Origin: Amoebophrya sp. A120 | Lineage: Eukaryota; Protista; Dinoflagellata | Direction of reading: 5' to 3' | Assembly (NCBI GenBank): GCA_905178155.1 | Contig: CAJINV010000004.1 | Coordinates: 2,781,283-2,845,282 of the forward strand | Length of the DNA stretch: 64,000 nucleotides | Shown here: piece after piece, positions 2,500-63,660 of the stretch | How positions within the stretch are numbered: position 1 is the stretch's first letter | Layout: each line of letters starts with the position of its first letter | The notes under the pieces: generated by a model | Databases searched by the model: none | Told to the model about the DNA's origin: nothing | The model's input: the letters and a program-made list of their open reading frames with translations, nothing else | Program-made: the position numbers and the translations under genes

Positions 2500-5400
2500 C
2501 TAGTAATATGCCGTGTCATTTTTCGCGTCAAAGTTGGGCATGGTGCAGTTGGTGTCGAAGAGACGCAAACGAAACTGGTCCGAATTGTAGTCCGCCAAAG
2601 TGTATGAGTTGCAAAAGTATCGCACTCGTATAAATGCATTACAAATTTAGCATGAGAAATAAAATTTGTAATGCAGATTTGCCTTGGGCGATAGATTTGT
2701 TGTAAATGCAAGACTTGCATTTATACGAGTACGATACTTTTGCACAGGATAGAGTGGGATTCCCCCGCCGCCGCAACCAAAAGCCCTTTCCGTCGTATCA
2801 CGCGTGACAAGGTCTTTTACTCCCGCTCCCCAGTAGGTTTCCGATTTATAACACGCCCAACGATTAAATCTTAAACTACTTTCAAAAATGTTGCCTAGCT
2901 TCTAAAAGTCCGTGCGCAGGCTCTACCATGTTGGCCCGGTGCATCGGCAACGTGCCCTGTGTAAAGCATGACTCCAGCCTGTCGACCGGCATTGCCCCTC
3001 AACGCCATGCCCCAAAGGAAAAAGGCACAACAAGCAAGACCACTGGGGGCGGAGGCATAATTATCGTGCGCCAGGGCGCTTCTTTCGCAATGGCAACGAT
3101 AGCCCCTTCTGGGCCATCGCGCGCGCCGCGCTTCGCTTTCACTGACGTGCGGGCGCGTGCTTCCGAATCGCTGGAGGGCTGGCCAATTTACGGCTGCGGT
3201 GCGGCGCGCTGGTTTGTGGTCCCGACTGACAACCCTTGTCGCTGTGCCGCTCCTCGCGCCCTGCGGAGGGCGCCGGAGCTGTGAAAGGCGGCGGCCAGGT
3301 TTTTTGTCTACTACGCCACTGCTGTTCCAGTGGGCCGCTCAACACAGGCCTGCTCACTGCTAGGCGCGACTCGCTCTCGCTTCTCCCCAATGCGGGCGCA
3401 AGCGGACCCATAGGCCGCCCGCTGTTATTTTGCGCGGCCTCAAAGAGCGCGCCCCGCCATTAGCCGGCCAGAAAAAATTGCCCGTGGGTGTGCGCTGCCG
3501 CTTTCTGGTAGGGACGCGAATTGCTCCGCCGCTTTGATGGAAGCAGGTCGCGTTCCCATTCAGCATCCAATTGCCGCCGAGCCTCCACGCATACACCTGG
3601 CGATTTTCTCGGCCACCCCAGGGGGCCTCGGCAGGGGGTCTGAGGGGGTCCTCAGACCCCCCCTCTATACCAACGCCCAGCAAGACCTAGCTTTTTTGCA
3701 GCCCCCACGGTACGGTCCGCCAAAGGGGGGTCCCGAGACCCCCACCAATAACCCCCCCTCGATGGGCCGGAAGCTTCTGCCGTGTCTTTCGATTTCGCAG
3801 AAAACGGGGCGGCGGCCCTTCAAAGAAAACGCGCCCCAGAACATCTGGAAGGGCGCGAGGGTGTGGCGTTCGGGCTGCACACCGATACCCATTCCAGGCT
3901 TTTCCCAGGTAACTTTCTTGCATGCGCCGCTGCCCCGGTTACGGGCTTGGTGTGTGTGCATGCTTCCCCGGAAGCGTAACTAAGGCCGATTGCGGCGCCG
4001 CCGCGTTTTGTGCGCCGCGGGGGCGCGCGCATTCTGCTCCCAACAAAAGGACGGCCACACGTACCCGCACGAAGGCGGTGGAGTTTGTCTACCTGCCTGG
4101 TCCGTCGGCCCCCGGGCCCGGGCGAGGAAATACGAAAGCAGGGCCGAAGGGTGTTCCACGTAAGGAACCGGCTCAGCACATGGGCCCGATCACAAAAACA
4201 CACACGCGCCCAACTCGCTTCGGCAGGCGGTTTCTTTTACTCCCGCTCCCCAGTAGGTTTCCGATTGTGCTGTAGTTGCACAGCAGTTTTAGCAATAGGA
4301 CTTACTAGCTTGTGATCTCAATCCAGTAACTAACTCTACCTTGCATCTCGTCTGCATGTGACAAGCTGAGACGAACAAGACAACGCGGCTTACAGTTAGA
4401 ACTACATGCAGATGGAGTAGACGTGGACCACGTGCACTCGCTTTTAATAGGGACTCATGCGAAACCTCCATCTGCTGGGTAGAGCAATGACGGAGTGGAT
4501 CTTTTCACGCAGGATAGGTCGCCCTTATACCACATTTGGTCGTCCACTTGTCCCGTGTCAGACTGTCGGTTGTCGCTGTCGAAAGGAGCTGTGCAGCATT
4601 GAGGTGGAACTACAATTTTTTCTGATCGTGAAATGCGTATGACGAAAACAACTTTTCTAGTAGCTACAGCAACACAAACAAAGTAAAGAAGCTAGGAGAG
4701 TTCATGATGTTCTACATGATGAAATATACAGGGTCGCACTGGCGGGGTATCGGTGTATCGCAGGCGCAGCGTGTAAATGTCCGGCGAATTCGGATAGTGC
4801 ACCAGTTCGAACCACTGCGAGGTGCGGTAGTCGCAGTAGTTGTATCCTGTGCAAGAGTATCGTACTCGTAGTAATCGAAGTTATGCATTACAAATCTTTT
4901 TTTCAAGGTGAATCCGCATTACAAATTATGTTTCTCATGCTGGGGAAATTTGTATATGCAATTTACATTAGTACGATACTTTTCCAATCCATAAGTTGTT
5001 GTACACTACCAAATATTCCTCGGGCGGTTCCAGCGGCCGCGAACTGTTCGTGAAGATCTCCGTACCGAGACACCACCCGGTGTGCGACGGTCCTTCGTAG
5101 GTCAGATCGTACGTGTCGCCCTCGGCAACCTCCAGCTGGACCCATTTCGCCGTCCGGTTGGCGCAGCCGTAGTCGGGCGGGTTTGTGTTCAGGACCACCC
5201 CGGGCTCCATGCAGTCCAGCTGCTCTATGGCGTCCTCAACTGTTACACTCTCAAGTGTTATTAAATACATGAATTTGTGATGCAAGAATGGAAAGAGTGA
5301 ACGAGGCGACCTTGCGCGTCTGGCATGACAGATTTGGCACAGATTAGCAGCCTGTTTGGCCCTCTGATAATTTGTCATGCGAAGCAGCGTGATGGTGTCG

Positions 5401-8011
5401 ATTCTGAAGATAGTCTTGCATGGCAAATCATGTAACAGTTGAGAGTGTAACATTTGAGAACGCCATATGCTCCGTGCGTTCCATCGTGTGCTTGATGAAA
5501 AACGGCGTTGCGTCGGGGTGGGCCATATCGTTTGCAAAAGTTGTATCGTGTATCGTGCTCGTAGTAATTACCGCAAGTAGTCATGCATGACAAACCTCCT
5601 GTTCATGTTCAAGGTAAACCAGCATGAGAAATTCGAACTCCACTTGTCATGCTGAGCTAGTTTGTGAAAATGCACTTAGTACTACTAGCAAGTACGATGC
5701 AGCTTTTGCAATCTATACGCCACATCCGCGTCGCTGGAGTTGGAGTACCAGTGGGGCAGGTCCTGCCTTGTCGTGTCGCGCAAAATTTTGACGTCGCAGT
5801 ATGCACTGCAAAAATGTCTGGGTCTGGAAGGAAGGATGCAACTTGTCATGCTAAGTTTGGACTGTGAAAAAATCTGTGTTGCATGGTTGCCAAAAGTTGT
5901 CCACTTTTGACCAAGTTGGGAGGGAGTTTCTCATGCAGGGTAGGCATAATAGAGATCGCACAGAATCTGTTATGCTAGGGCCTGCATTCCAGCCCTCGTG
6001 GGTCATGCAAATGCGCATTCCATTCTTCCAGACCTAGACACATTTGCATTTGATACGCAGACACGCTTGACGATGGTGGCCCGCTGTTGGTCCACTTCGA
6101 GTTCGGTCGCGATGTCACCCCGGTAGGTATCAGAGTGCACAACTAGTACAACTCCCCCTCGTCGTCCCCCTCAATTTTCGCAGCAAGTAAGCAGGAGGAC
6201 CAGCAGCGGACCCGGCAGCGAAAATGATGGTGCATCGACATCACAAGTTCAGGCAGTGACTGCACCAGTATACTGAAACTAATGTGGCGCTCGACCTCGC
6301 GGGTTGATCATGTCGTGAAAACCACACAGCTTCAAGATCAACACAGCATACAGCACTTGCTATTTATTTGCATGACAGATCATGAGGGGAGCAGGGGGCT
6401 TTTGGTTTTGTCGTCGGCTTTGTGCAGTCGGATAGTAGGCCACCGTGCGACACAGGTCGTTCTTGTCCTCGTTCTTGCTTTTGGTTTCCGGGCCCCACTG
6501 TACCTGGAGGTAAAAGTCCCGGGCCGGGTCTGCGCTCTGCAGTGTAAAGGCGGCCTGCCGGTTCAGGGGGCAGGCAGGCACGTCGGGTTTGTTTTCGTAA
6601 TACATCTTGTCGTACGGCGCCGGCTCGTCGTTGTTCGTGTTCGGATCCGAAAACGGCTTTTCCTTGAGCGGAATGCGGCGCCACGTGGACTCCCGGTTGG
6701 TATCGGATTTGGCCCAGGGGATCTGCTTCATCCCCACAAAGTTCGTGTCCGGGACGCCCGGAATTGCGCTCGGGTCCACGTTATCCAGTGCAAATTTGTC
6801 AGGGTCTGGAAGAGTGTAAGTTTGTCATGCTTGTCTCTCATGACTCCTAAGAACTTTGTGATGCATAAGCCTGAGGAGAGTCTCTCGCCTGTCATGCAAA
6901 AACGCAGTTTGCCATGTAGAAAGCGAAACACGGAGCAGGAGCTCAAGAACTTGTCATGCTTGGCTGCGTGTTGCAGCGCTTCCAACAATCCCAAACCAGC
7001 ATCACAAGCTTCCAGACCCAGACATATTTGCATTAGATACACATCGCTGGAGGTGTAGCGCAAGGGCCCGCCGGATTCGGGCTTCAGGTCCCAGTTCGGA
7101 TTTATCCTGTGCAAAAGTATCGCACTCGTATTGCAATCATGCATTACAAATTTTTTATTTTTTCTCAAGGCAAAACAGCATTACAAATCTTATTTTTCAT
7201 GCTGAGGGAATTTGTCATGCATTCATACGAATACGATACTTTTGCAGTTCATAGGATTTTCCACGTACTGGAAGACGGTATCGTGGTCGAGCGACCCCGG
7301 GCCGGTGTTTTTGTAAGTGAAGAACATGGAACCACCCTCAACTTTTTTGTCTTTCTGTGGAAGGCTGGATACGGAACTCGTCTTAGTGCTATGTTGATCA
7401 GCGTCGGTCGTGCTTTTTTTGCTGACTTCAATTTCGTTCGTCGAGGTGCTCTGCTCATTCACAACTTTCTTGCCCTTCACGTTCTTCTTGATCCCGTTCT
7501 TTACTCCGGAAGCTGAAGCAGCACGGATTTTCTCTTTTTTGTCGTTTTTTTCTGCATGGTGATGGGAGGTCTTCAACAGCGAGGAGGCCTGATGCTGGTC
7601 AACACGGTTCACGACTTGCAGAGCGAATGCTGCGCCCGGAGCAGGTTGGACAGAGTCAGAGAAGGTAACGTCCAGCACGACCTTGTAAATACTCCAGCAC
7701 GACCAGCACGTCGACATGATCTTCATAGGACGGCGGGCGAGCATTTGAAGTAGAAGCTGGAGAGATTTTCTAGACCCCGCAGAAGCTCCTGCTGTTGCAC
7801 CTACAGAAGCTGCATTTTTAGAATTTTTCCGAGTGGTCTTCTGATCACTCATGGTGCGTCTACGGCAAAACAAGGACCGCGATGCATTGTTCCGGGGGAA
7901 AAATCCTGGTGCTGTCCACCGTCCGCACGAATCTTCTCGTGGGACCGCTTTATCCGGAGCCTGCTTCCCGTCCGGCTCCGGGGGAAGCTGCTGCTGGTGC
8001 AGTAAAAACAT
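2500..8011 (-). CDS. Hypothetical multi-exon Cys/Trp-containing protein with 8 introner introns and a 1.4-kb insertion; both ends approximate
   Basis: Removing each element plus one 5-bp repeat gives a continuous frame: ...FQYVENP|NWDLKPESGGPLRYTSSDV|DPSAIP...RTVAY|RGDIATELEVDQQRATIVKRVC|DVKILRD...SDADVA|HPDATPFFIKHTMERTE|QLDCMEPG...YLVVYNN|YCDYRTSQWFELVHY. No family recognised. Confidence 0.7.
2603..2751. mobile_element. Introner, TIR family A
   Basis: TATGAGTTGCAAAAGTATCGCACTCGTATAAATGCA ... TGCATTTATACGAGTACGATACTTTTGCACAGGATA; flanks AAGTG/GAGTG. Confidence 0.85.
2847..4232. mobile_element. ~1.39-kb GC-rich insertion flanked by a perfect 34-bp direct repeat
   Basis: TCTTTTACTCCCGCTCCCCAGTAGGTTTCCGATT at 2813-2846 and 4233-4266; no convincing ORF inside. 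Confidence 0.75.
4843..4993. mobile_element. Introner, family A
   Basis: TATCCTGTGCAAGAGTATCGTACT ... AGTACGATACTTTTCCAATCCATA; perfect repeat AGTTG. Confidence 0.9.
5226..5467. mobile_element. Introner, family D
   Basis: TATGGCGTCCTCAACTGTTACACTCTC ... GAGAGTGTAACATTTGAGAACGCCATA; perfect repeat TGCTC. Confidence 0.9.
5526..5717. mobile_element. Introner, family A (diverged)
   Basis: TATCGTTTGCAAAAG ... CTTTTGCAATCTATA; repeats GGCCA/CGCCA; frame restored (ADVAHP). Confidence 0.8.
5800..6055. mobile_element. Introner, family B
   Basis: TATGCACTGCAAAAATGTCTGGGTCTGGAAG ... CTTCCAGACCTAGACACATTTGCATTTGATA; perfect repeat CGCAG. Confidence 0.9.
6128..6434. mobile_element. Introner, family C
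   Basis: TATCAGAGTGCACAA ... TTGTGCAGTCGGATA; perfect repeat GTAGG. Confidence 0.85.
6782..7039. mobile_element. Introner, family B
   Basis: TATCCAGTGCAAATTTGTCAGGGTCTGGAAG ... CTTCCAGACCCAGACATATTTGCATTAGATA; repeats CACGT/CACAT. Confidence 0.9.
7103..7253. mobile_element. Introner, family A
   Basis: TATCCTGTGCAAAAGTATCGCACTCGTA ... TACGAATACGATACTTTTGCAGTTCATA; perfect repeat GGATT. Confidence 0.9.
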
Positions 8012-8142
8012 GATGGCGCTGCGGATTATCCTCCGACCGGTGCTGCTTGAGGCGAGGAACAAAAAGTTCTTGTAGAAGGATTGTGCAGCAGGAGTAGTCC
8101 ACGACCTCGCGGGTGGTGGTGGTCCCAACAAGCCCTATTGGT

Positions 8143-8794
8143 GGACATAGGCAGGATCATCCCCCCAAGGATCACCCCCCTCAAGATGCAGGGGGGGTTA
8201 GGGGGGCCAGGGGGTGGGCCGGGGGCAGGAAGGTAGGGGGCAACGAGCGAGGCCGGGGGCAGGCAGCCAGGCTACGGGGGGGGACAAGGGCAGGCGGGCC
8301 GGCGGCAGGCAGACCGGGGGCAGGGCGGGGCGGCGTTGGTATTTGCTGGAAGGCCTTCCCAGAGGTTTCCTGGGCCAAGATGTGCTACAGGCGGGCAGCC
8401 ACCCGAGGAAGCCCGGGAGCGCCTAGCGCCTCGCCCCCTGAGGCAACAAAGGCGGCACAGTGAGCGAGCCCCCCCGGGCGGGGTCACGGCAAACCAACGA
8501 AGGGGGAAAGGGGGGGCAAAGAACAGAGAGGGGCGCGAGGGCGGCAAGGCCGGCGGCGCGTGCCTCCGGCCCGGAACAGGAAGGGGCAAAGGGGAATCGT
8601 CTGGGCCAGCCGTCGCGACGGCGCCGTCGCGACGGCTGGCCCAGACGACACCGCCGAAACCCTAAACCCTAAACCCTAGCCCAAACCTAAACCCTATGCC
8701 CTTTAGGGGGGTGATCTTGGAAACTTGAGGGGGGTGATCTTGGAAACTTGAGGGGGGTGATCTTACCTTGAGGGGGATGATCCGGCCTACGTCC
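8143..8794. mobile_element. Non-autonomous Mutator-like TIR element (652 bp)
   Basis: TIRs GGACATAGGCAGGATCATCCCCC / GGGGGATGATCCGGCCTACGTCC; perfect 9-bp TSD CCTATTGGT (8134-8142, 8795-8803); 23-bp subterminal tandem repeats at 8706-8764. Confidence 0.8.
8657..8700 (+). repeat. Interstitial telomere-type (CCCTAAA)n tract, degenerate
   Basis: AAACCCTAAACCCTAAACCCTAGCCCAAACCTAAACCCTA, inside the Mutator-like element. Confidence 0.7.
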
Positions 8795-10114: not shown

Positions 10115-13100
10115 CTAGTACTTGACCAACGGAACGCCCACCTCCTCGCGATCCTGCACCCGCCGAGCGATCTCGCGCAGCTCGTCGGGGACCGGCTGGC
10201 CGGCCTTTTCCAGCACCTGGATCAGATGAGCAGCATAGGCGGTTTGCAGGAAAAAAACTGCTTCACCCTGCTGAATTTTCGTGCTATTGCTTTCGAGGGA
10301 ATTATACAAACATGACCAGTCGTGGTCGTGGCACTAGGACACTACTTTCGAAAAAGAACAGATGCAACACAGAGCCAGCGACAGGCACAATACAATTTGG
10401 ATTTGCACAACACCTGCTGCATGAAGCCTGCTTCCCCGTGCACGGGGGCAGGAAAGACGCGCCACAGAATTGGGTCGTTTTATGCTGGAAGCCCACAGAG
10501 CATCATCTTTATCAAAATTTAAAACTTCTCTTCACTATGAAGCAGTTTTTTTCCTTTGCATAGTCCGGGTAGTTGGGCCAGTGCTATCAAGTGTAAAAGT
10601 GTCTGGGTCTGGAAGATTGCCAGGTTTGTCATGCACATTTTGCATGACTCCTGATGTCTGTGATGCGTGCCCTAGCGCCACAGATTTTGTGAGGGCTTCC
10701 TGATGCCTATACCGCATGACAAATGCTCTGTCCGTGTAGCAAAACTTGGACTCTCTTTGCTGCTCATGCAATACAGATTTTTTTACAATCCAAAATCAGC
10801 ATGACAAGTTGGATTCTTCCAGACCCAGACATTTTTACAGTTGATAAGTACTCAAAGATCGCGATTGACGACGCCTTGGTTACCACCTCCCTGGTATAAA
10901 ATTGCAAAAGTATCGCATAATTACAGCTATGCATGACAAATTGCCTTCCTTTTCCTACGGCTCTGCCTCTGCTATAACAGCATGACAAATTCCATGATCT
11001 GTCCACACTCTTTAGCTAATTTGTATATGCAATTCAAACTAGTAACGATGTTTTTGCGCAGGATAACTGCCCCGTGCGGTTCGCCCGACACGATGCACGT
11101 AGTCTTCGAGCGAAGAAAAGTCGTAAATGAAGACGTGGGAAATGTCCGGAATGTCGAGACCGCGCCCAATCACGTCGGTTGCCACCAAAAGCCGGATCCA
11201 GCCACGCCTGTAACATCAATTCAGTGGATTTATTCTTTTTTCCGGAACTACATGACAAACTGGTGCACGGATAATCTAGATTATTGGAGGAGGACAAAGC
11301 TGTTGTGAAAGCACTCCTCTTTGCTGCCTTCGGAACATTCGGTACAACTTAAGTATCAACATTCTTACCGAAAAGATTCGATCGTGCCGGTGCGTTTATC
11401 CTGTCGCTTCCCACCGTGCAACGGTATGCTCTAAAAATCACGAGTTGATGAATTTGCATAAAAATCCCATTCCCAACAAGAATAACCAAACTTTGCCTTT
11501 CAAATTTTTTGAGTCATGATGATGCCTTTAAACTAGAAGAAAGATCTCCGCTCCAAGTCCAACGTCATCTTGCCATCACTACGTACTGAGTGGGAACAAT
11601 ATGCAAGTCGTTCTGCGAGCTTGCTAGTCACGACACACTATCACGACTTACATGACTTTGGTTTATGGACATAGACTTCGACATGCCGTAAAAAACGCAG
11701 ATAAAAAGAGGACAAGCGTGAGGCAATTACATCATCTCATCAATTATCCGAAATCAACATTTTTCTGTTTCGTAAATGCAGCTGCCTCGTTGAAGCCCAC
11801 GTTCCAGAGGTCACTGCACAAGTTGTCCGCCGTCACTTCTTATGCATTGCAAAAGCATCTTCGCACTGCAGTTCTGCATGACAAAAGTATCTTCGCACTG
11901 CAGGTCTGCATGACAAAAGTATCTTCGCACTGCAGTTCGTATAAATTGCAGTCCTGCATGACAAACTCCAGTTTTTCTTCTTGAGAAAGTTATTTGTCAT
12001 GCGCTTTATACTAGAACTGGTACGGTACTTTTGCGGAATGCATATTTTTTCCGCGACGAAAATGAGGACCTTTACGCCCTCGGGAAAGGACCGATTGGCG
12101 TTTTTCTCGTAGGCGGTTGTACTAGAATTGGAGTCAGTGGTTGCGATTGGGATGTTGTATAAGGCTTGTTCCTGCTCCTCTTCATTCTTTCTCCCCTGCT
12201 GGTCCTCTGTCGTCAACGTCGTGTAGAAGTTACTTGCACCTCCTTCATCGCACCGGCCATCGTTTTCCAGGAGGGCACCGCTGTTCGTGGAATTGGACAC
12301 CTTCAGGTCCCGACAAGAAATATGCAATGGAACAATTTTTGATGCGTGCTACCACGCGTTAGAAGAAGTCCTCCTCGCACTTTCTTACTTTAGACTTTCC
12401 TAATTAGAAATCCACATTGAAGAACAAGATGAGCTCGGAAAGTAAGTTGTAGATCAACTTCCACTATACGTTCTAAGTAAAGTGCCAGTAGTACTGGCGT
12501 GTCAGTTCTCTATACAGAAAGATCTTGACAAGTTTTCTGAAGATCATGCACCGCTGCAGATGGTAGTACTTACTCCCGCTTTCATTGATGCAGCTTCACG
12601 AAACTTTACCTTGTACTAGTGCTTGTGCTGAGGACTTGGCATGATCACCAACACAATTTTATTTTTCCTTCGGGATAATCCAGCAGTTCGGACAGAAAAT
12701 CGTAAAGTAGCTTTTTCTTCAGTGTCTGCGCTGCAGCATAATCCAGTGACGGGTCCACCACGATCACCTTCTGGTCAATCTCCGGTCGGACGGTGAGAGT
12801 GCAAGAACCGGAAAAAGAAGTATCGTGTCCCTCATGTCCCTCAAGGGCAGACGAGCCGGCTCCTGTCGTGTTGGAGGCAGCATTGATCCTCGTTGAACCG
12901 TTATACAAGAAAAAAACTGTGTAAGCGTAAATCTCTGATGCGGAAAAAGCAAAACAGTTACACTTCTTGCGCTTGTCATGCTCGACATGCATGAGCATGA
13001 TCGGCTCGTTTCCTATGTGTATGTTTTTTCCCTTCCTAACTGCGCATAACAAGTTTTTCCTATCATTGCAGACAAACTTGTGATGCTGTTTTCCCAAAAG

Positions 13101-15446
13101 ATTTACACTAACGCAGTTTTTTTCTTGGATAACCGTGAAGGTCCTGTTCGACCTCCAAAATCAGCTTCCGCTCGTTTTCCGCGAGTTCAAAGGCGACTTT
13201 TTGCACGGTCGCGTCCCACGTAGCCGTGAAAAAGTAGGTGATGCGCTTCCGTGGCGGTAGAGGACCTTCTGCTCGTCCGGGTTGCATTTTCATCGCCCGC
13301 GCGAGCTCTTCGACGACACCTCCAAACCCCTCGTCGAGCATGCGGTCCGCTTCGTCCATATCAAACAAAAAAGCGCTAACGTAAACGGTCCGTTTACGTT
13401 TAGATTTTATTTTTAGAGATTGCAGCTATGCATGACAAATTTTGCCTAGAATGCATGCTATGCAACACCAATTCCGATTCCGGGGCCATTTCTGATGCAT
13501 TACTGCATCACAAATTTTTCCGGTAACCTTAGCACTTTTTCCTGTGATAGTCCAGGACCAAAATGCCGAAGTTCCGGCTCAGGTCGAGTTTTCCATCCTC
13601 GACGAAGTCCCTCAATCTGCCCGGCGTTCCGACCACGAGACGCGCAGCACAAAGGTACGGCTCCTGGTATTTGCGCCCCTGGCCGCCGTAGCAGCATACC
13701 GAGCAGATTTTTCGGCAAAAGGTCAACTTCTCAAACTCCTTGTGGATCTGGTCTGCGAGCTCCCGGACGGGAGCGAGAACTAGTGCGCGCAGCTCCAGGC
13801 CCTGCGCCTCTGCGGCCTCGAGTTGAATGATGGTGGCTACGAGGAACGCGAGGGTTTTGCCGCTGCCCGTGCGCGCGACACCGATAATGTCGATCGGGGC
13901 GTTGAAGGTCAAGGCGTCATTTGTTACCGTAGAAGAAGCCCCCATAATTCTTGTCGCGCCCTCGTCTGTAGTTCCAGGAGCTGCACGAAGTATGGAAATA
14001 TCAGAACAACACGTTGAACTAGGCGTTTTCGCAAAGAGGTGTTGGACCGCCGGGGCCAGGAAGTATTTCTGGATCTTCATCGGTCGCGTCCACTTGTACC
14101 AGTCGAGATTGTCGAGGACGTAGCCTTATGCATTGCAAAAGTATAAGTGTCGTAGTCGTACTCGTGAATCTGAATTGCACTAGAAATTGCCTTAGCATGA
14201 CAGATTAAATCTGTATAGGCGGATTTTCCTTAAGAAAGAGATTTGCAATGCACGCACGCAATTAGTACGAGTACGATACCACTTTTCCAGTGGATAAGCC
14301 TGGAATCAAATTTTCCGTCAAGTCGTCCCGGAAACTGTCAAAAACAAACACGCTGTTGACGCCGTTTTCCGCAGCTGGAGGACCAGAGTCATTTCTGTCC
14401 TTCCCAGATGAGGATGACACGTGCTCCAAAACGATGGGCGCAGCTGCAGCAGAGACCGTCGACGAATCAGTTTCGATTTTTGTCGACAGGAGAAACTGGA
14501 TCTGGATCCGGTCTGTTTCCAGCTCCTCCAGGGTGGCGAGTTTTCCAAACGAAGTCACCTCCTGCGGGTTGAAGCGGAAACCAGATTTTTTGTACTCCGT
14601 CCAACTTCCGGCTTCGTCTTTCACCCACGTGTTGCCTTCTTTGTCGACGACTGTGCTGCTGGTGACCGGGTTTTTGGTGAAAGACGCTGCGTTTTGTTGA
14701 TTCCACGAACGAGTCGTGTAGTAGGTTGCGTTGTCTTCACCGGTCGTGGAATAGTTCTTGCTGTCCTCGTCTTCTCTGATGTTTCTGTAGTAGTTGTTTT
14801 TCCTGTCGTACGGGACGTCATTGCCGCGACCTCCACCAAAACTCCGGTAGTTCGAGGTTGTAGAAGCATGATCGTAGCTGTTGTATTTCGCTCGCCAATC
14901 TTCCGGGGCCTTCGCGGCCGTCGAAGCAGCGTCGTCGTAGTTTTCAGCCTTGTAATAGCGTGTGCTGTAGTTTCGATTTTGTTTCTGCCAGATCGTAGTA
15001 GACGATGAGTAGGACGAAAAGTCGCTTTTGTGGAGGTCGTGCGAAGGTGCTTTTCCGTCCCACTCACCGTCGCCTCGCCAATTGCCGGCACTTCCACCTT
15101 CGGGGTTGCCTCTGTCGTCGCGGTAGTTGGAATGCTGCGTGTTTCTATAGTTGTACCAGTCTCCGCTCTGTCGTCCAGTGGAGTCGCTGTAATTTTTGTC
15201 CCAAGAGGAGGCCCAACTTGACGACCCCGAGTTGGCAGCCCGCTGGTCGTGGGAAGTCGACGTGGGAAGTCGTTTATCGTTATAATTATTTTCCCTCTTC
15301 CCCCAGGGATCGTTGTTCTTGTAGTCCTGCTGCGTATCTAGCACGTGCTCACTAATAGGACCGGCCACGGTGGCTGCCGGTTCGTGCCCATGTGTCGAAC
15401 TGGGCAGGGACGTACCATTAGTTGTATCGCCGTACGCTTCTGTCAT
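10115..15446 (-). CDS. DEAD-box RNA helicase, DDX5/Dbp2 (p68)-like, with long low-complexity N-terminus
   Basis: After splicing: Q motif (WTRPMKIQ), [26 protein letters not shown]|[49 protein letters not shown], and C-terminal [16 protein letters not shown]; stop TAG at 10115-10117. Confidence 0.9.
10239..10557. mobile_element. Degenerate introner-like non-canonical intron without TAT/ATA ends
   Basis: Perfect 18-bp inverted repeat AGGAAAAAAACTGCTTCA (10248-10265 / 10538-10555); direct repeat GCATAG (10233-10238, 10558-10563); removal gives [12 protein letters not shown]. Confidence 0.7.
10585..10846. mobile_element. Introner, family B
   Basis: TATCAAGTGTAAAAGTGTCTGGGTCTGGAAG ... CTTCCAGACCCAGACATTTTTACAGTTGATA; repeats AGTGC/AGTAC; frame FEY|WPNY. 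Confidence 0.9.
10895..11065. mobile_element. Introner, family A (diverged)
   Basis: TATAAAATTGCAAAAGTATCG ... CGATGTTTTTGCGCAGGATA; repeats CCTGG/ACTGC; directly follows helicase motif VI. Confidence 0.75.
11841..12044. mobile_element. Introner, family A-like, with internal 32-bp tandem repeats
   Basis: TATGCATTGCAAAAG ... CTTTTGCGGAATGCATA; repeats CTTCT/TTTTT; splits helicase motif IV. Confidence 0.75.
12902..13131. mobile_element. Introner, family E
   Basis: TATACAAGAAAAAAACTG ... CAGTTTTTTTCTTGGATA; perfect repeat ACCGT; frame DLHG|STRIN. Confidence 0.9.
13359..13549. mobile_element. Introner, family E, inside the DEAD motif
   Basis: TATCAAACAAAAAAGCGCTAA ... TTAGCACTTTTTCCTGTGATA; perfect repeat GTCCA. 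Confidence 0.9.
14127..14296. mobile_element. Introner, family A
   Basis: TATGCATTGCAAAAGT ... ACTTTTCCAGTGGATA; perfect repeat AGCCT; frame LIPG|YVLDNL. Confidence 0.9.
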
Positions 15447-18400
15447 CCTGTTGTTCTTGCTTGAAGTACTTATATTCTTTTCTGTTCTTTTTACTGTCGT
15501 GTGCAGGTGCTGCGGTATTATGTATGATGATCTGTTTCCCTAAAAGATGCGTACGCCACTAACTTTCACATCTAGTATATCTTTGAAAACCGGCGACCAC
15601 ACGACCGCAAGCCAATGGCTTATATTAAAATTCAGTCTATAGCTGTAAAGAGTTGCTGAAGATATTACCGCTTTGCTATTCGTAATCAGCCGATTTTTTT
15701 TCTCTTAGTACTAGTAGAAGTCTACTTCGCTGCTCTATTCCATGCAGCTTTACTTGCTCGTTGAACTGGTGCACCACACACCCGCATGTTGTTCATATTC
15801 TGCCTTCAGGCCATCCTTATTCCTTTCAACTTCAAGATACAGTTTCTAAAACACTGGTCATGATTCGTTGCCCATGAACATGATTGGGTAGGTCGTCTAC
15901 GTTGCTGGCAACAATACTTCACACGTACGCAGATGACCGACGAGGAGCAGTAGAAGATCATCTGCACTTCGACGCGCCAGGCATCCTAGCCGCACTACAA
16001 CTTCCTCTTTTGTTAGTATGCTCCTCCGAAAACAACTTGCGCTTCTCGCTTCAGGACCAAGTTTGCGACTATTTTTTTTTGGTTATGGTGTCCACGCACC
16101 AACAAACACTGATGTAGTAGAACTATGCATCACAGACACAGGACACTTCATCAAGTTGACTATAACTTCAGGACGAACATCCACTTCACGGGGTAGTCGA
16201 GAAGTATTATAAAAGTCAAATCTACTACAACATCTTCTTCGGTTGATGTACCGGAATTGGTGAGCTATGAGCTGCAGATTTTCTCTTCTTCGCCGTTTTC
16301 GCTTGATACATCCATGTTTCTTTCACAACAGCATCTCCTTGGGAGACATCTAGTAAAAGCAGGTCACTCACAAAGGGATACAAAAGCAAATACGTGATGA
16401 AAAAATCAGTACTGCATGGCGGAAGCCCGCCCATTCTACGGGACTGCCAATGACAGATTTCTTCTTGTTTCGGATACATATTCATTGTTACATCCAGAAG
16501 TGTGCGCTGCTAGCTTTTTTCTCTGGGATACCATTGCACTTCTCCAGTGGTCGGTGAAGAGCATGCTATCACCCGACGTATCCACACTTGCCTTTGGATT
16601 CTCAGTAGCATGATCAACACAATACTCATGCTAATCTAATCCATGTAATAACTCAAGAAAAATACCAACTGGCTGCAGCAGCTTTGGCTACCTTAAATCT
16701 GAAAAAAAAGAAAAACGCAAGCAAAATAAATCTTGAGAGACGGGCTATCTTCTGAGTAAAGTCACAAAGATAAAAATCTTATTTAGCTGCCTTTAAAAAT
16801 TTGTTGGGAAGCGTCGCTTAGTAAAGGTTGTGAAAAAAGAAGTAAAAAGTTACTGCTCTGGACAAAATTCGAGAGCGTTGCTGAAAGCTTAAACGCGAAT
16901 TTCGCTGTGCATAAAAATTGCGCTGTGGAGAAGAGAAGCTGTTTTTTGTTTCTGTGTTTTTTGCTTTTGACGTTTTGCTGCTATCCACTTTGCGAGCTGC
17001 AGATCTTCTTGGATGATCTGTCTTACGCCGATAAAAAGACGTGTTTTTTGTTTGAGTTTTAAACTTTCTCTTTCTCGCTTTTGAGTACTAAAAGAAGTCT
17101 GGACTTGCTGACGTTGAGCGCTACTTCTCGCGACCTGCGAGCGCCTGTATGAAACAAGCTTTTTCGGCACTATATCAGCATTGAATAAACAAGAAAAACT
17201 AAACAAGGATTCGACGCAATCCCTTTATTTGTCCTAGCACGCGACATTCGATCGCACAGGTGTCGAATCACAACCCCAATCCTTGCACAGGCGCTCGGCA
17301 TCAAAACGGTACTTGCTGGTTTCCTTTTTCTGCCCGTTGCAACAGCAGTACCAGTAACCTGTGTTCGTGGTAGTTAATTATGATTTCCATTTGTGTGCTT
17401 ACAGTCTCTGCACTACACGCAGTACTACCAAAAGTCGCGCACTATGCACGCACACACATACACAACCGACAAGCACATTTCTTTGGTAATGAAGTAACAT
17501 TTCAAGAGGCGCCAGTTATTGCATAGGGTAATGCATCGTAAAAATTAAAATAGCGCACTGGCAATGGAGAGACATGACGAAGAAAAAAAATGATCATCAT
17601 TTTCATCATTTACCGTCGTGGTCGTTCTGCCGGGTCCAGCTTGTCGGCTGAGCTCGCGCCGTATTCGCTGGTTCTGCCGGTTCGTGTCCCCACGGTCTTC
17701 CTGGAAAAGAGCCGTCCTGGGCGACCCTTCGTCCGTTGCGCACTGTGCCGGCGTATGTCGGACGGTTCTGTTTTTGAAGATTGGCTTCTTTCGCGCGTCG
17801 GTATCCCAACGACCCCAAAGACAAGAGGCGCACAAGAAAAGCCAGGACGAATCTGAACACCACTAGGAATCAGAGCAGTATCCACTTTGTAACGCACTCC
17901 GGTGCTTCTCGTGTGTAGTGCAGGTTTTCCGTTCCTTCCTAAATAAGCTAGCACGAAAGTGCCCGCATCAGGGTGCTTAGAGGTAAGAGCCAATATATTT
18001 GCAACGCTAAGAAGCATACGCGCCGCAATAGTTTCCCGTGGAGAAGCTAGCGCATCTGTGGCAGTGGTTGACAAGCAAAGCAGAGGCGTTTCATGCTTTT
18101 GGCCGTTCGGCAACGTTTTGCCGTTTCGGAATTTGCCATGCGTATTTGGGCCATTTAGTGACGCTCTTCCCCCTTCCCTTTTCGTGATCACGCCCAACAT
18201 TTGGCGGGCGGCAGAGTAGTGCGCGGCTATTCTACGAGCTGAGTCAATATCTTCAGGCCCATTCTGCGGCCATTTTCTCATCGCTACTACTGATCTGCGG
18301 CATAGGTGAGGTTTTCGGAATTTATCCACTTTTTTGATTTGTCTTGCTAATCACGGCCGAGCTCTTTGATTTGGGTGGACCTCAACGAAGGTCCACCTCG

Positions 18401-21033: not shown

Positions 21034-22351
21034 TCTGGTGGGTGTTGTCTTTGTGGGTCTTTCTATTTCTTTCTACAAAAGACGAAGTAATGGAAGAGTA
21101 CAAGGACGGAGCGGGCTGATGCAATCTAGTATGTAAAAGTCCTTGCCGCGGTACTTAGTTCGTGATTGCGTTGCTGGCCGCGTACTTTTGGTTTTGCGCC
21201 TCTAGAACATGCAAGCTGTACAATTATACCGTTTTAGTACTTCGCTCGCGCTTTCGCTCAGATGATGCGCAACAGGCCAGCGCTATGAGTTCGAGCATGG
21301 TTATTCCCTAAAGAGATACATCTTTCACTCAACTGCTTTGCCTTTGCTTGGTCCTATATGCAGTTGGCCCTCATCACGCAGAAACACGCTCGGGCGGCTC
21401 GTTGTGCTTCTTCTGTCTTTTCTACTATTCTGTTGTCAGCGCTACTCTATGCCAGCACGTCGCTTTTCCTTTTGTTCGTTTTCCTCGTATAAATTGGAAT
21501 TGCTTCTTCAGCTTGCTTCAAGAAGCATTTTGTAAACGCTGGCCATAAGTACGCGTATTAATACGTTGGCGAAATCTAGTACGTGCCCCACGCTCAAGCA
21601 GATGACTGACAAGATTCTCATCCGCACTTACTTTCTTGCGCCGAGCATCGCCCTAGTCGTCCTGCTTTCTAGTTTGTACTATATGCTCCTTGTCTGAGAA
21701 GTTGTGCTTCTCGCTGCAGAAGAAAAATCCGACCATGTTTTATCCGGTTTTGGTTCCCCAGAGCGAAGTTGCTGAGTTAAATTTACAACTTTTTGACGAA
21801 CACCACGCGGCCGCCTTCATCCGATTGCCAAGAAGTATTCAAGAGACCAGACGAGAAAGCTAAATCTACATCTTCAGGTTCACTTGATGCAGCAGACACT
21901 GGTCCATTTCCCGTTGGTCCGTCTTATTCGGGGTTCTCGAGGCGGTTAAAATCATGTAAGAGCCTCGCGTCTGTGCAACGCTATTGGTAAGCAAGCTTTG
22001 AGCTGCTACAGATTCTCTCATATTCCCGTTTCTGCTATACGTGTTTCATCTCCGCAGGAGCTCCTTTGGGGACATGTACACAGTCCAGATCTACTCCAGT
22101 CGGTGGACGGATGGTCGAGTCGAAGTTTCAATGCTGCCCAAGAGCCCCGTGGATCGAGTCCAACTTTGCCGCCAGCTGTTCGCGTTCGGTAGTATGGAGA
22201 GGAAAAATTCTTATCCTAAACACGTAGTAGCTCCTCAAGTTCGTCGTGCTTTCATGAAAAGCCGCGAAGGGAAAACAAATCCGCTTCTGCTTTTGTTTTC
22301 TGGTGCTGGTCCTTTGTGCTGCATGACAAGTTGTGATCTATCATCGCACTG

Positions 22352-31585: not shown

Positions 31586-32756
31586 GCCGTGAAGTATATT
31601 TTTGTCTAGACGAAAAACGGTTATTTCCCGTAAATACCTGCGTTGTTCCGCGCCCCGCTGTTCAGTTGCTGGTCATCCACTCCTGCGGCATGATTTCCAC
31701 TAGAGGCCGCCGCCTGTCGAATCGCTCCTCGGACGCTTTTGCGAAAAATATCCAGTGCAATAACTACCACCCAGAAGTAGCTCTCCACCACCAAATCAAG
31801 TCAATCTACACGAGAACATCACCGTCACCGATCATTTTTCATGTTTTCCATTTACATTTCTTACCTAGACAGCCACACTGCAGCTGCAAAGAGGAGCGGA
31901 ATTCATTTGTTAGCTGTCCTACATTGCACTTGCAGTGAAAATTATGGCCATGCTCACGCTGCAGTTCGTCTTTCATGCGTGTCTCTTGTTCTCGTGAGAC
32001 TGAGAAGCGACAGAAATGAACATGGAAACTTTCTTGTTGCCGCACTTTCTTCAAGTTGAGAGAACTACATCAGGTGCTTCTGGTTGTCACACAGCATAAA
32101 GCGCCAGGCCAATCGAGAATTCCGCGTCGGTATGAATTTTGAAAAGTCTACATCCTCGTGGAAGCCACGACAATCCTCATCGGCCGAAATTTGAATTTGT
32201 AATGCATAAGCATATACTTGCAACGAGATCTTCTTTCAGTGCATAAAAATTGATCTTTTTTGCTTATGATGATCCACGACAAGACAACAACATCATCATC
32301 AAACTATTGAGGATTGTCTTAGTTCGACAAGGTGGCTCATGACATTTTACACGAGATACTCGGTGGCTGGCGGTCGGGCACTGAACGGTACCCCAGGCTC
32401 GCCCTCCGCTTCGCCGAGAAGTGGGTATCCTTTTGAAATAAAACGTACCTCCCACCAGCGCAGCCCGAAGGTCAGGACAAGGATGGTTTTAGCAGTTTTG
32501 GTTTTGCTGCACAAGAAATCAAACCATTTTCATGAGCATTTGCGCATGACAACTTTGGATCTACAATGAACTCGTGACTGTACAAGGAGGAACTAAGCTA
32601 GTTGTACAGCCGCAACATGATCACAACAGACTCACAAAATTATGCTTCTCATGCCCGGGGGACAGGGACTGTCCGTGAAATAACACAAGGATTGCTTCGA
32701 GTTCTAGCTTAGCATGGCAGGCGACCGGTCAGGCATAACATATTTCTATTTGCGGT

Positions 32757-60399: not shown

Positions 60400-63300
60400 G
60401 GCTTCAGGACGTCAGGAACTTTGAACCCCATCTCGGTCATGATTACCGCTAGCTTCGCCGGGTCTCGGGTGGCGCTTATCCGGTGCAAAAACGTACCCTA
60501 CTGCACCCCAGAGTTGTCATGCATGTCTGCATGCGCAGAGGCAGAAATAAAACGCAGATCTCATCCGTGGGGGAGCGCGCTGCACATAGTTCCTTCTGTA
60601 TAAATATTCATCATGTAGTTCTAGTGATCAGCAAAAGAGACAAGATCTGTCGTCTCTCTTGTAGCATTCATCACAGCTGCTAGAGGACACGACTACGTAA
60701 ACGTATACTACTTTCGTGAGTCTCCAACTTGAATATTGTCATGCGGAGTACTAGTTCCCAAAAGTTGAAGTTCTGAGCTGCATTTGTGTGGCAAAAGTCG
60801 CATCTTGATGCTGGGGGGCGGGTGCGCTTTTACTACACAGGATAGCATTCAAGGCCTCCTCCTTCGAGCTGAGTTCGCGGAACATTTGGTTCTTGATGTC
60901 CATCGCGCGCTATGAGAGTGCACAACTCCCCTTCCCTTTCCTTTGTGTTGCATGAACAGCAACAAAAGCCCTGGCAAAGATGCAGCTTTTGCATCACAAA
61001 TTCCTCAAGGATTGTAGTGCTGTTTTGGATTCCGGAATCTGTCATGCAAACAGTGTTCACAGGCAAAAGGTGGATTTGGAAATTTGCATGACAAATGAGG
61101 GGGAGGGGGACGAGTTGTGCACTTTCATACGCGCGCAAACTGTGCATCCTTAGCCTCCGCTTTCGACCGCGTTTCTGCCACCTGATGTTGAATTTGATAA
61201 ACGGCTTTTTTCTATTGATTTTGCGGCTTCAAAAGTGCATGACGAGTGTGCTGCAGCTCCTTATTTTGTGCTGGCCCTTGCGAAGAGCTGCATGGTGGAC
61301 GATGACAAGTTCAACTCTAAGTTGTAGAAGATTTATCCACCATATTTCTACGCATTCATTTTCACATTCTATCACCTTGACGCAACTCTTTTCCTCGTCC
61401 TTCAACTCTAGTAGAACTTTGAACTGATGTTGCTGTTTTTAAGTACCCTTACCTTCAAAAGCGAACAGGTCTTCGCCATTTCCTGTGCCCGGAGTTTCGC
61501 CTGGTAATTTCGCTTCTGCAGTATCCTTTCCAAAAACTTCTACCACACCTCCTCCGACCCACAACATGCCGACAAGCTGAGGAAGATGATTGAAGCAGCT
61601 TGGAAAAATATTAAACAGCGACTGCAATTTCTACTGTAAAACTGAAGGAAAGAAACCACCAGCACTGCAGCACTTCTTCTACCGGCGCAGAAGTAGCTCT
61701 GATGCAGCTCTTCACTGTTTTTTTTTTTTGAAAGTTTATCTGCATCGATGCACAAATTATAAAGCGGAAGATCATAAATGGCACACGGAGTAAAAACTCT
61801 TGAGTGGTTCATGAAGATTCCTCGCATGATTACTATATTTCTGTGTCTCAGACTCAGTCACTCAATAGAATGGAAACGTTTTATCGAATCCTCGTGCAGG
61901 GAGGTGGGTGGAAGTTCTGGAAGAGCAGTCGTGCCATCGGATATGCAAGGCGCCGAAAGTCTCGTATTTCTGTTCCTTGTGCGTGAAAACGTCCATGCCG
62001 TTCTTGATTTTTAGGTCCTTGACGTAGCTCTATCCGAATGCACAACTTCTTTCCCTCCCAACTGTTTCTGGAGATGCTCCATTCATGGTAGAGTACGGCT
62101 TTTATTTCATGGAAAATTTACACGGGATTGCAGTGCTGGTGGGGCTGCCGCTGCTGGTACCCATCATGCAAACAGTCCAAGTTGTGTGTTTTGCATGGCA
62201 AGTAGTAGAGGGGGAAGTGCAGGGGTACACTCTGATAAGCTCACCCGCTCGTCCATGTGCTTGGATCGCTGCTCGTATATCAACCAGAAAAGTGTTAACC
62301 TTAACCGTCTTCGCAGATTGATGCAGTCACGCATGACAGATTGTGCCTAGCACGCATGCTATGCAAGACAAATTTCATGCTCTTTTCGCACCATGTGTTC
62401 TTGCATCACAAATTCCTCGTCCGTTATCGTTATCACTTTTTCCTGTGATACCGTACTTTTCGTGCCGACCCTTGGTTTCTGACATGATGCTACCCTTGTT
62501 GCTCGTCATCGTCAAATATGCATTGCAAAAGCGTGCTACTGGTACGTAATGAGTGAAAATCAAATACAAGTAGAAGTAGTAGTAATTGCATCGCATCAAT
62601 AAATTTTCTCAGAATCTTCAAGAATGGACGACTTTCTCTATCATGTAGAACTAAGACTCGGTAAGTAGCGAAGCACATCAGACGCTTGATCATGTCACGA
62701 AAGACTGCAATCCAATTGGGACACGACTTTTGCGTGGGATATGGAAAACCGTTCTCCCATTTTCTCCTTCACTGTCTGACTGCGGTCTTTCAAAAACTGC
62801 CTGCGAGACGAAGCGACGTCCTGGTTCATCATTTTTCGGTTTTATACTAAGGGCAAATACTTCTTCAACTTTTACATTTAGTCTACCATTTTAGTAAAAG
62901 CTATGCTTTCTTTCGTCTATCTCACAACACCAGATGATATCATGTTTTGATGAACGAAATCAGAACCGGGGAGGCAAGATGAAGGAGCCATCTCCTGCAG
63001 CTATGAATGTCGACATCATGTTGAAAAAGAAACTTGAACTTCAACACAAAAAAATATACCGCATAGTGTCCTTCGAACTTTTCGTGTTTTTCCAGGCGTT
63101 CCCGGGCCTGCTGCGCCAGTGTGTTTGCGACGTCCTCCTTTATTTTCGCGAACTTTCGCTGCGAGGCGTCAGGTATGCATTGCAAAAGCATCGTGCTCGT
63201 CATGCTTCTCGTAGTAATTGGAATTCATTGCAACGCTACAAAAACTAGAGCGGGGTAACAAATGCGCCGTTATCTCGCAGCCGCGAGTTAACCTTCCGGC

Positions 63301-63660
63301 CGGCCGGACGGTTAACTCGCGGTTTGAATGGTTCTCAGTTGCTGAACGAGCCCAAAACCTGCCCGCGTGGTTTGGGTAGGTGTTGGGCTGGTTGAGCAGC
63401 TGAGAACCATTCAAACCGCGAGTTAACCGCCCGGCCGGCCGGCCGGAGGGTTAACTCGCGGCTGCGAGTTAACGGCACATTTGTTACCCCGCGCCTACAC
63501 TACTTGGGCAGGAGTGTGACGAATTTGAATTTCTCATGCTGAATACCCGAAGAAACCAGGCATGTCATGCAATTATGAATATTACCACGTACGAGCACGA
63601 TGCTATGGCAATAAAGGTGGATAGCAGTCTGCGCCTCGATTTTGGCTTGGATCTCAGCCT
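60400..63660 (-). CDS. Hypothetical charged, coiled-coil-like protein; 5' part lies beyond the window, 3' end approximate
   Basis: In-frame joins: KIEAQT|DASQRKFAKIKED, KMGERFS|TMTSNKG...HEKY|EQRSKHMDERVS|YVKDLKIK, HSLRA|MDIKNQMFRELSSKEE. Confidence 0.6.
60911..61129. mobile_element. Introner, family C
   Basis: TATGAGAGTGCACAACTC ... GAGTTGTGCACTTTCATA; perfect repeat CGCGC. Confidence 0.9.
62031..62237. mobile_element. Introner, family C-like
   Basis: TATCCGAATGCAC ... GTACACTCTGATA; perfect repeat AGCTC. Confidence 0.8.
62278..62450. mobile_element. Introner, family E
   Basis: TATCAACCAGAAAAGTGTTAAC ... GTTATCACTTTTTCCTGTGATA; repeats TCGTA/CCGTA. Confidence 0.8.
62517..62741. mobile_element. 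Introner, family A-like
   Basis: TATGCATTGCAAAAGCGTG ... CACGACTTTTGCGTGGGATA; repeats TCAAA/TGGAA; frame restored. Confidence 0.75.
63174..63623. mobile_element. Introner, family A, carrying a nested MITE
   Basis: TATGCATTGCAAAAGCATCGTGCTCGT ... ACGAGCACGATGCTATGGCAATAAAGGTGGATA; repeats TCAGG/GCAGT. Confidence 0.8.
63246..63497. mobile_element. Palindromic MITE (252 bp)
   Basis: TAGAGCGGGGTAACAAATG ... CATTTGTTACCCCGCGCCTA; the two halves are near-perfect reverse complements. No clear TSD. Confidence 0.8.

Follow-up and report, generated by a model that had tools for sequence, protein, structure and literature searches.

TAT...ATA introners in a 64-kb window of the Amoebophrya sp. A120 genome: anatomy, removal from transcripts and a probable common cut register

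The analysed window is a stretch of 64,000 nucleotides of Amoebophrya sp. A120 (contig CAJINV010000004.1), the genes of which are repeatedly interrupted by short elements with TAT...ATA ends, inverted repeats and 5-bp direct repeats. The exon at 13529-14125 has 100% identity to a DEAD-box helicase in NCBI that is labelled Amoebophrya sp. A120 (referred to here as P0001), exon 6435-6779 is 99% identical to a second NCBI protein of the same strain (P0002), and an exon of the gene at 39546-41560 matches Pfam PF01217. All host genes are on the minus strand, in agreement with published accounts of unidirectional gene clusters in Amoebophrya. Since the exons match A120 proteins, Farhat et al. describe such elements (PMC7789003; all papers are cited here for the parts of them that were available), and the annotation treats 17 of the 60 elements listed below as introns of P0001 and P0002, both the class and these copies are already known: they are the published introner set of strain A120. 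The first-pass annotation of the window, made from the sequence alone, had assigned the elements to this class correctly. Their identity as introners and their splicing can be regarded as practically certain.

A strict scan, demanding TAT..ATA ends, a perfect 5-bp repeat and complementarity of the inner 12 nt of the ends at 8 or more of 12 positions, revealed 17 elements in the window versus about 0.04 per shuffle. A relaxed scan (TAY..RTA ends, repeat identity of at least 4/5) revealed 28 elements, whereas 100 shuffles of the window gave 0.66 on average and never more than 4. The final set was curated by hand, with gapped end similarity, reading frame, and RNA contigs or annotated proteins as support. 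It comprises 60 elements between 2603 and 63623, which are 109-450 bp in length (median 224) and total 14,174 bp, or about 22-22.5% of the window; six weaker candidates are included, and the element at 38149-38408 and the one starting at 63661 are counted apart. The earlier figure of about 40 elements was an undercount, and their existence is beyond question. The elements are found in about 16 minus-strand coding segments, some of which possibly belong to one gene, and in at least 12 genes; at least nine had been claimed.

The element ends have the form TAY..RTA: TAC is present at nine of the 60 intron 5' ends, and two 3' ends are ACA or AAA. Position 4 is almost invariably C or G, and weak complementarity is confined to positions 6-7 (29 and 24 of 60). 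The proposed architecture of TAT followed by four variable nucleotides is retained as to the TAT-type ends, but has to be amended as to position 4 and the occurrence of TAC. The 5-bp direct repeats are at least 4/5 identical in 39 of the 60 elements (5/5 in 24, 4/5 in 15, 3/5 in 13 and 1-2/5 in 8). At least nine end families can be distinguished, where five or more had been noted, and they have in common TAT, C/G at position 4 and an A-rich block. Alignment within the window gave six clusters, in which the orientation of some copies is reversed. Between families, the interiors cannot be aligned, as had been noted; nevertheless, they share the internal motif GCAT[GTC]A[CG]AA (GCATNACAA-like). 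Inside elements lie 82 of its 86 occurrences in the window, and it is present in 41 of the 60 elements and in none of five canonical introns. For comparison, a second assembly was sampled by a search of metagenome_contigs with the family-B end pattern, which gave 160 stretches, those examined being JACKZZ01 contigs (loci L001-L154, 526 kb). In this assembly, 686 motif copies are in strictly called elements, which make up 15% of the bases, and 518 are outside them. An Rfam search of the window gave no match. The elements are likely non-autonomous transposons with a strict 5-bp target duplication.

When each element is removed together with five bases, and the canonical introns known from RNA or annotation are also taken out, frames of 616, 987, 518, 766, 275, 260 and 606 codons are obtained, which hold 7, 9, 10, 2, 5, 5 and 2 elements, respectively. 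The helicase frame spliced in this way includes P0001 letter for letter over all 956 aa, and 604 residues of P0002 match the corresponding frame with no difference. A strict +/-1 frame test, which has little power towards the ends of genes and where segments are short, was passed by only 32 of the 60 elements. Under the cut register described below, none of the 60 introns is GT-AG, and sliding within the repeat makes any G[TCA]-AG pair possible in only three of them, so the claim of non-GT-AG junctions is upheld. U2-type spliceosomal introns, in contrast, have GT (or GC) and AG ends. The +1 and -1 to -4 positions of the 60 introns exhibit no base constraint, and no drift of decayed repeats to GT or AG was seen (C in 19, T in 16, G in 13 and A in 12 cases at +1; AG ends in 5 of 60).

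Evidence from transcripts comes from contigs of four probable RNA runs (X1-X4) of one sample, which were compared with positions 23160-43155 at 99% likeness. Among the 15 joints listed of 38, 12 correspond to an element plus five bases, and the other three are canonical CT..AC introns, which show spliced minus-strand transcripts; a poly-T loose end at 39147 also fits a minus-strand 3' end. One of the 12 element joints was labelled GT..AG by the tool, but the strand is wrong for that reading. Three further removals are seen in the contig piece table and the record coordinates, and one more at 14122-14296. In total, an element and one repeat copy are missing from the contigs at 16 sites, in accordance with the earlier proposal that this removal restores the frame. 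Canonical and element introns alternate within the same contigs. The raw RNA runs X8 and X9 (2026) scarcely map to the window (19 and 359 reads) and yield no junctions.

The position of the cut can be read only where the two repeat copies differ. Let k be the number of bases kept from the left copy. The joints 23692-23875 and 40192-40402 are exact: one base of the left copy and four bases of the right copy are kept, and the intron is therefore N-TAT...ATA-NNNN in transcript orientation (the 1+4 register). The direct junctions of the elements at 23192, 24159, 39594 and 41080 allow k=0-2, that at 24299 k=0-3, that at 25665 k=1-3 and that at 26153 k=1-4, whereas those at 23697 and 40197 demand exactly 1. 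The sole value fitting all nine direct junctions is k=1, with a chance of 3.9e-4, or 2.3e-3 if any k is allowed. Six indirect junctions (26669, 42498, 12321, 10243, 11425 and 10585), for which contig ends and the first k-mers of retained-form bubbles were used, also fit k=1; the chance for all 15 of 15 junctions is 7.9e-7, or 4.8e-6 if any common position is allowed. Two P0001 junctions (10895 and 11841) agree with k=1, and the P0002 junctions leave the register open, every k being synonymous there. All nine predominant A120 motifs in Table S4 of Farhat et al. start with NT (PMC7789003). It is probable that 1+4 is the dominant register genome-wide.

The register is the same for elements in either orientation, for repeats that have decayed to as little as 1/5 and where the predicted stem is weak. 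Since the cuts are exact at repeat identities of 1/5 and 2/5, the repeat is dispensable, and it is likely a scar of insertion rather than a guide for splicing. The earlier proposal that removal relies on the repeat is not supported, as the elements at 23697, 40197 and 25665 are cut in the common register. The terminal stem, on which removal was also said to rely, is predicted for most elements, but not for all that are spliced, so that reliance on it is supported only in part: of 54 folded elements, 48 show pairing between their end regions (8 or more expected end-to-end pairs), the element at 23697 is spliced though it has no significant fold (z 0.36), and the predicted TAT:ATA pairing is below 0.1 in four RNA-confirmed TAY-end elements. 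The family-B copies at 30365 and 30772 lie in opposite orientations in one gene and are both removed; the signal is therefore symmetric and points to the ends. Likely, the element ends set the cut, rather than GT-AG or the flanking repeat.

As an overall explanation, we lean, by a small degree, towards removal of transposon-like inserts at 1+4 by a relaxed U2-type spliceosome. Such a spliceosome would recognise the TAT of the element end as bases +2 to +4 of a donor site, so that an N-U-A-(U/C)-(G/C) intron start, with +1 free, would replace the GUAUGU-type donor consensus. Pairing of the inverted repeats would join the two ends, and the 3' cut would be measured 4 nt from the element end, AG not being needed. 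As 1+4 equals the 5-bp duplication, an insertion in either orientation would be removed with the protein unchanged. Judged from the sequence, catalysis by the spliceosome is marginally preferred to a nuclease and a ligase, because the intron start is donor-like and most spliceosome components are reported in A120: most of the proteins and U2, U4, U5 and U6 are listed, and U1 is given as undetected (PMC7789003). A branch point at an invariant -7 A, at which the window hinted, was rejected; it is unsupported in the second assembly, where one 3' end lacks the -7 A.

A non-spliceosomal, structure-reading endonuclease acting with a ligase, as proposed for euglenid and diplonemid introns, could cut the same elements in the same register, which we consider rather unlikely. 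The freedom of the +1 and -1 to -4 positions, the frequent pairing of the end regions, the removal of both orientations and the undetected U1 all agree with such an enzyme, and euglenid introns form circles, for which an RNase III route has been proposed (PMC12621601). However, some spliced elements have a weak predicted terminal stem or none, a cut at 1+4 would be staggered by 3 nt with respect to the TAT:ATA pairing, the cut is placed exactly so that TAT gives a donor-like U+2 and A+3, and element introns alternate with canonical ones in the same contigs. RNase III cuts typically leave a 2-nt stagger, which, as we infer, a seamless cut of a 5-bp duplication cannot yield.

As for mobility, homologs of 23 of the 54 window elements compared were found in the second assembly. 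Short paired family-B copies there have an exact 5-bp duplication in 56 of 59 cases and one of 6-9 bp in none of the 59, and the target profile of 277 strict elements is flat, without a target consensus. TA..TA is present at both ends of 58 of the 60 window elements, partly through curation; in the second assembly, where the end check was run without requiring TA, TAC was found at 1 of 73 5' ends and 1 of 73 3' ends. The summed depth of DNA contigs is about 1e6 at element ends, compared with about 45 where the sequence is unique; since 90% likeness was used, this indicates repetition only roughly and gives no copy number. Terminal inverted repeats (TIRs), a target-site duplication (TSD) of fixed length, short size, the lack of a transposase and many dispersed copies, all of which the elements exhibit, are features of miniature inverted-repeat transposable elements (MITEs). 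The longest TAT..ATA elements of the second assembly, L022:505-1608 (1104 bp) and L028:632-1465 (834 bp), have exact 5-bp duplications; the latter is a family-B copy with an internal insert, and neither has an informative open reading frame (ORF).

The elements seem to work like MITEs of an integrase-related transposon, but to belong to neither of two known groups. The IS3EU/GingerRoot group also has TA..TA termini with occasional TG and no target consensus (PMC10045372, PMC6839031); membership was rejected, since the 6-bp duplication of that group is absent from all 59 copies and 5 bp are found in 56. Ginger2 has 4-5-bp duplications (PMC10045372) and TG..CA ends (PMC10045372, PMC6839031), and it was rejected as well, as TG is present here at one end of only one of the 60 elements. 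Gozashti et al. assign A120 families to TIR DNA introners of 105-320 bp with mostly non-canonical ends, and their family 38, which has integrase-like homology, is classed as Ginger-type, with '5-bp TSD, TA/TA Termini' (PMC12130899). This family is the best current lead to the mobiliser. Their automated TSD calls are 2 to 6 bp long, the modes of the splice sites are not the same in all families, and no common register is given in the parts compared, which include 56 of the 58 A120 rows of supplementary file 8 (PMC12130899). The elements would be mobilised in trans, the enzyme being an integrase-like DDE transposase with relatives in IS3EU/GingerRoot or Ginger2, and the shared internal motif may play a part in this. 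On the basis of the ends and duplications, an integrase-like mobiliser is proposed tentatively, and a single transposase specificity for all families is plausible.

It is less likely that several unrelated enzymes mobilised the families, the TAT ends and the 5-bp duplication reflecting selection for spliceable inserts. Gozashti et al. do assign A120 introners to non-long-terminal-repeat (non-LTR), LTR and diverse TIR elements (PMC12130899), a 652-bp GG..CC element with a 9-bp duplication (8143-8794) is likewise annotated as an intron, and the 1+4 cut would itself select 5-bp duplications. Selection of this kind does not readily explain why at least nine end families agree in the TAT, in a C or G at position 4, in an A-rich block and in a single internal motif, or why a non-coding copy (45272) has the same anatomy.

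Several points weigh against spliceosomal removal at 1+4 of inserts moved by one transposase. The status of X1-X4 as RNA is a guess from the skipping of canonical introns and a poly-T end, and the contig sets drop rare forms. Transcripts retaining the elements had been named in the first-pass annotation as a refutation, and unspliced forms of four elements (10243, 11425, 12321 and 42498) were assembled, against removal at 16 sites; the contigs do not distinguish between precursor RNA, DNA and true retention as the source of these forms. A listed joint fixes the cut exactly at no more than two junctions, the element at 38149-38408 is best fitted by a cut one base off the rule (a probable 1-nt exception), all junction data come from minus-strand genes in one window and one sample, and that sample may overlap the data behind the public annotation. 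In published annotations of Gozashti family 1, 892 of 1322 5' ends are NT (67%), but 864 of 1322 3' ends are AN (65%; PMC12130899), and eight of the nine predominant motifs of Farhat et al. also end with AN (PMC7789003). The NT and AN counts would both be obtained if 1+4 placements were mixed with mirror 4+1 ones; such a mix may reflect either the choice of the aligner inside perfect repeats or a real second register. The asymmetry of TAC in the window (9 of 60 5' ends, 0 of 60 3' ends) is not reproduced in the second assembly. Duplications in the IS3EU/GingerRoot group are 6 bp long, not 5 bp (PMC10045372, PMC6839031), and Farhat et al. found no transposase in A120 in the text available (PMC7789003). 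The long copies with the same ends and an ORF that had been suggested as a source of the enzyme did not turn up in the window or in the 526 kb of the second assembly. None of 28 ORFs in the window has a transposase domain, no transposase was found among 132 ORFs of at least 230 aa in loci L001-L154, and six TAT elements longer than 400 bp (up to 1104 bp) in the second assembly have no long informative ORF. A search of viral contigs with two end patterns found nothing.

Two other accounts of the missing stretches can be considered. The direct repeat and the stem could guide removal, with the cut anywhere in the repeat, which is near the 'variable' splice sites of Farhat et al. The 24 perfect repeats among the 60 elements, in which the cut is not placeable, the many end dinucleotides in published annotations and the one probable 1-nt exception are compatible with this, yet removal is exact at 1/5 and 2/5 identity and k=1 holds in 15 of 15 informative junctions, which makes it highly improbable. 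A hairpin with a direct repeat is the classic setting for template switching by reverse transcriptase, and retained forms do occur among the contigs, but an artefact of this kind, the elements remaining in real mRNA, is hardly credible given removal at the near repeat-less, stem-less site 23697, the single register, and the joining of short frames into 518, 616 and 987 codons, the insert within the DEAD motif included.

The elements resemble the A120 introners of Farhat et al. (PMC7789003) in their inverted repeats (8-20 nt from TAT with an A run there) and length (about 240 nt), in their direct repeats (3-5 nt, 5 bp in Fig. S19), and in RNA-supported non-canonical borders and a MITE-like reading. 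There are also differences. In the available text of Farhat et al., inverted-repeat motifs specific to families are given as undetected, mobilisation by a transposase is ruled out, and the legend of Fig. 3 gives the splice position as variable relative to the hairpin, with the border unknown (PMC7789003). The elements studied here have end cores that are specific to families, an internal motif in common, a strict duplication of 5 bp and a single 1+4 register. The words '1-5 nucleotides' in the S23 legend may already hint at offsets. In the literature searched, outside which were the figures of Farhat et al. and two supplementary files of PMC12130899, no mention was found of a fixed 1+4 register, of the repeat being dispensable or of a shared internal motif.

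Among other eukaryotes, euglenid and diplonemid introns also have paired ends, TSD-like repeats, no GT-AG and a likely MITE origin, and their removal enzyme is likewise given as unidentified (PMC11282704, PMC12621601). Their paired motif differs: CAG/CTG occupies +4 to +6 and -8 to -6 there, whereas TAT/ATA occupies +2 to +4 and -7 to -5 here. Fritillaria borealis has MITE-derived introns with TIR and TSD, which a modified U2 spliceosome removes (PMC11282704, PMC13326754). That species keeps preferred ends (AG-AC, AG-AT) and U1, whereas the +1 and the last four bases are unconstrained here.

We put forward, with some reserve, the view that A120 may measure its cuts as with a ruler, at one base before and four bases after the symmetric TAT...ATA ends of a transposon, whatever the bases at the cut site, and that introns in the tens of thousands may be removed in this way. 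Any insertion of a TA-ended, 5-bp-duplicating, putative integrase-like transposon would then become a scarless intron, whichever its orientation, and the apparent chaos of splice sites would be one rule. If 1+4 holds genome-wide, one rule would cover up to about 30,000 annotated introner copies (the count of Farhat et al.), correct annotated ends and show the flanking repeat to be dispensable for splicing. Exact intron ends would also enable a search for lariats or circles, which bears on whether the spliceosome is altered or a separate pathway cuts the RNA. As the elements themselves are published for A120, little is added beyond the register, the dispensable repeat and the shared motif.

Table 1. 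Elements and host genes in the window. Repeat, identity of the two direct-repeat copies; k, bases kept from the left copy; joint, joint in the RNA contigs; frame, reading-frame support.
Positions	Strand	Feature	Repeat	Support and remarks
2603..2751	-	element, family A (TGCAAAAGTATCG core)	4/5	intron in annotated P0002
4843..4993	-	element, family A	5/5	strict scan; P0002 junction
5226..5467	-	element, family C	5/5	strict scan; P0002
5526..5717	-	element, family A	4/5	P0002
5800..6055	-	element, family B (GTCTGGGTCTGG core)	5/5	strict scan; P0002
6128..6434	-	element, family D-like (TGCACAA core)	5/5	P0002
6782..7039	-	element, family B	4/5	P0002
7103..7253	-	element, family A	5/5	strict scan; P0002; contig piece from 7254
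10243..10562	-	element, intron 3' end AAA not ATA	3/5	P0001 junction; retained-form contig from 10209
10585..10846	-	element, family B	4/5	P0001; contig match up to 10582
10895..11065	-	element, family A-like	3/5	P0001 allows k=1-4
11425..11774	-	element, 5' end TAC	3/5	P0001; retained-form contig 11392-11804
11841..12044	-	element, family A-like	3/5	P0001 allows k=1-3
12321..12677	-	element	2/5	P0001; retained-form contig 12287-12706
12902..13131	-	element, family E	5/5	strict scan; P0001
13359..13549	-	element, family F, within DEAD motif	5/5	strict scan; P0001
14127..14296	-	element, family A	5/5	contig skips 14122-14296
22193..22386	-	weaker candidate, 5' end TAC	1/5	TIR score; frame
23192..23397	-	element, family A-like	4/5	k=0-2; joint 23186-23398
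23697..23873	-	element, decayed TIR	1/5	k=1 exact; ends TT..TC; joint 23692-23875
24159..24267	-	element, family G	3/5	k=0-2; joint 24153-24268
24299..24611	-	element	4/5	k=0-3; joint 24293-24612
25402..25625	-	element, family E	5/5	joint 25396-25626
25665..25851	-	element	2/5	k=1-3; contig removal
25871..26078	-	element, family D-like	5/5	contig removal; micro-exon between 25871 and 25665 elements
26153..26294	-	element	3/5	k=1-4; contig piece from 26296, spliced distance 535 as predicted
26669..26934	-	element	1/5	k=1 inferred; contig pieces end 26664; frame
26972..27162	-	element, family F	3/5	frame
30365..30635	-	element, family B	5/5	joint 30359-30636
30772..31034	-	element, family B, opposite orientation to 30365, intron 3' end ACA	5/5	joint 30766-31035
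32131..32358	-	weaker candidate	4/5	frame
32426..32794	-	weaker candidate, family I	1/5	
32886..33202	-	element, family H	5/5	strict scan; homologs in second assembly
35712..35867	-	element, family B-like	4/5	frame
35984..36170	-	weaker candidate, 5' end TAC	4/5	TIR score; frame
36615..36790	-	element, 5' end TAC	4/5	TIR score; frame
36895..37146	-	element, family B	5/5	strict scan; frame
37261..37548	-	element, family D-like	3/5	frame
37645..37907	-	element, 5' end TAC, weak TIR	5/5	
37918..38092	-	weaker candidate, 5' end TAC	4/5	TIR score
38149..38408	-	family A-like element, not among the 60		4 nt of repeat on one side; contig piece from 38408
39594..39809	-	element, family D (coatomer-zeta-like gene)	4/5	k=0-2; joint 39588-39810; fold z -7.5
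39852..40113	-	element	5/5	joint 39846-40114
40197..40400	-	element, 5' end TAC	2/5	k=1 exact; ends GT..TG; joint 40192-40402
40445..40786	-	element, 5' end TAC	5/5	joint 40439-40787
41080..41265	-	element, 5' end TAC	4/5	k=0-2; joint 41074-41266
42498..42781	-	element	3/5	k=0-1; retained-form contig 42464-42811; pieces end 42492
42827..43122	-	element, family E-like	3/5	frame
45272..45389	.	element, no coding context found	5/5	strict scan
49183..49450	-	element, family B-like	3/5	TIR score; frame
49495..49717	-	element, family C	5/5	strict scan; frame
51873..52031	-	element, family A	5/5	strict scan; frame
57821..58010	-	element, family A-like	5/5	TIR score; frame
58446..58684	-	element, family C	5/5	strict scan; frame
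60477..60844	-	element, family I	3/5	TIR score; frame
60911..61129	-	element, family D	5/5	strict scan; frame
61522..61943	-	weaker candidate	4/5	
62031..62237	-	element, family D-like	5/5	frame
62278..62450	-	element, family F	4/5	frame
62517..62741	-	element, family A-like	3/5	frame
63174..63623	-	element, family A-like, nested hairpin element at ~63246-63497	3/5	TIR score
63661..64000	-	family B end, not among the 60		partner end not found within window
10118..15539	-	host gene, DEAD-box helicase		9 elements + 1 canonical intron
23129..27414	-	host gene, 518-codon frame		after removal of 10 elements + 3 canonical introns
39546..41560	-	host gene, coatomer-zeta-like (Clat_adaptor_s)		5 elements; poly-T loose end 39147

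Two micro-exons separate adjacent elements. The one at 25852-25870, with about 14 coding bases, is present in the RNA contigs, and the one at 37908-37917 has about 5 coding bases. Reads of run X8 at 10798-10846 carry a family-B end with a different flank, which means that a related strain shares this family. The region 17770-18390 is repeat-like: reads of run X9 map to it at 90-95% with many loose ends, it matches locus L026 of the second assembly at 77%, and its 246-codon ORF has no Pfam match.

The window also contains repeats of other types. The Mutator-like inverted-repeat element at 8143-8794 contains telomere-like repeats near 8660-8700 and is an intron with non-standard ends in the P0002 annotation; it resembles family 65 of Gozashti et al. 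(627 bp, 8-9-bp TSD, GG/CC; PMC12130899). A 2145-bp inverted-repeat element at 33304-35448, apparently within an intron, has TTA..TAA ends, an exact 5-bp duplication, internal 11-bp tandem repeats and three long ORFs without a Pfam match; TTA ends are those of the A25 introners according to Farhat et al. (PMC7789003). Exact direct repeats of 33 bp (at 2814 and 4234) and 63 bp (at 46354 and 47784), each pair 1.4 kb apart, bound GC-rich inserts, which are possibly LTR-like or composite mobile elements. The element nested at 63246-63497 is a nearly perfect hairpin, and the same end sequence begins a copy at 19437.

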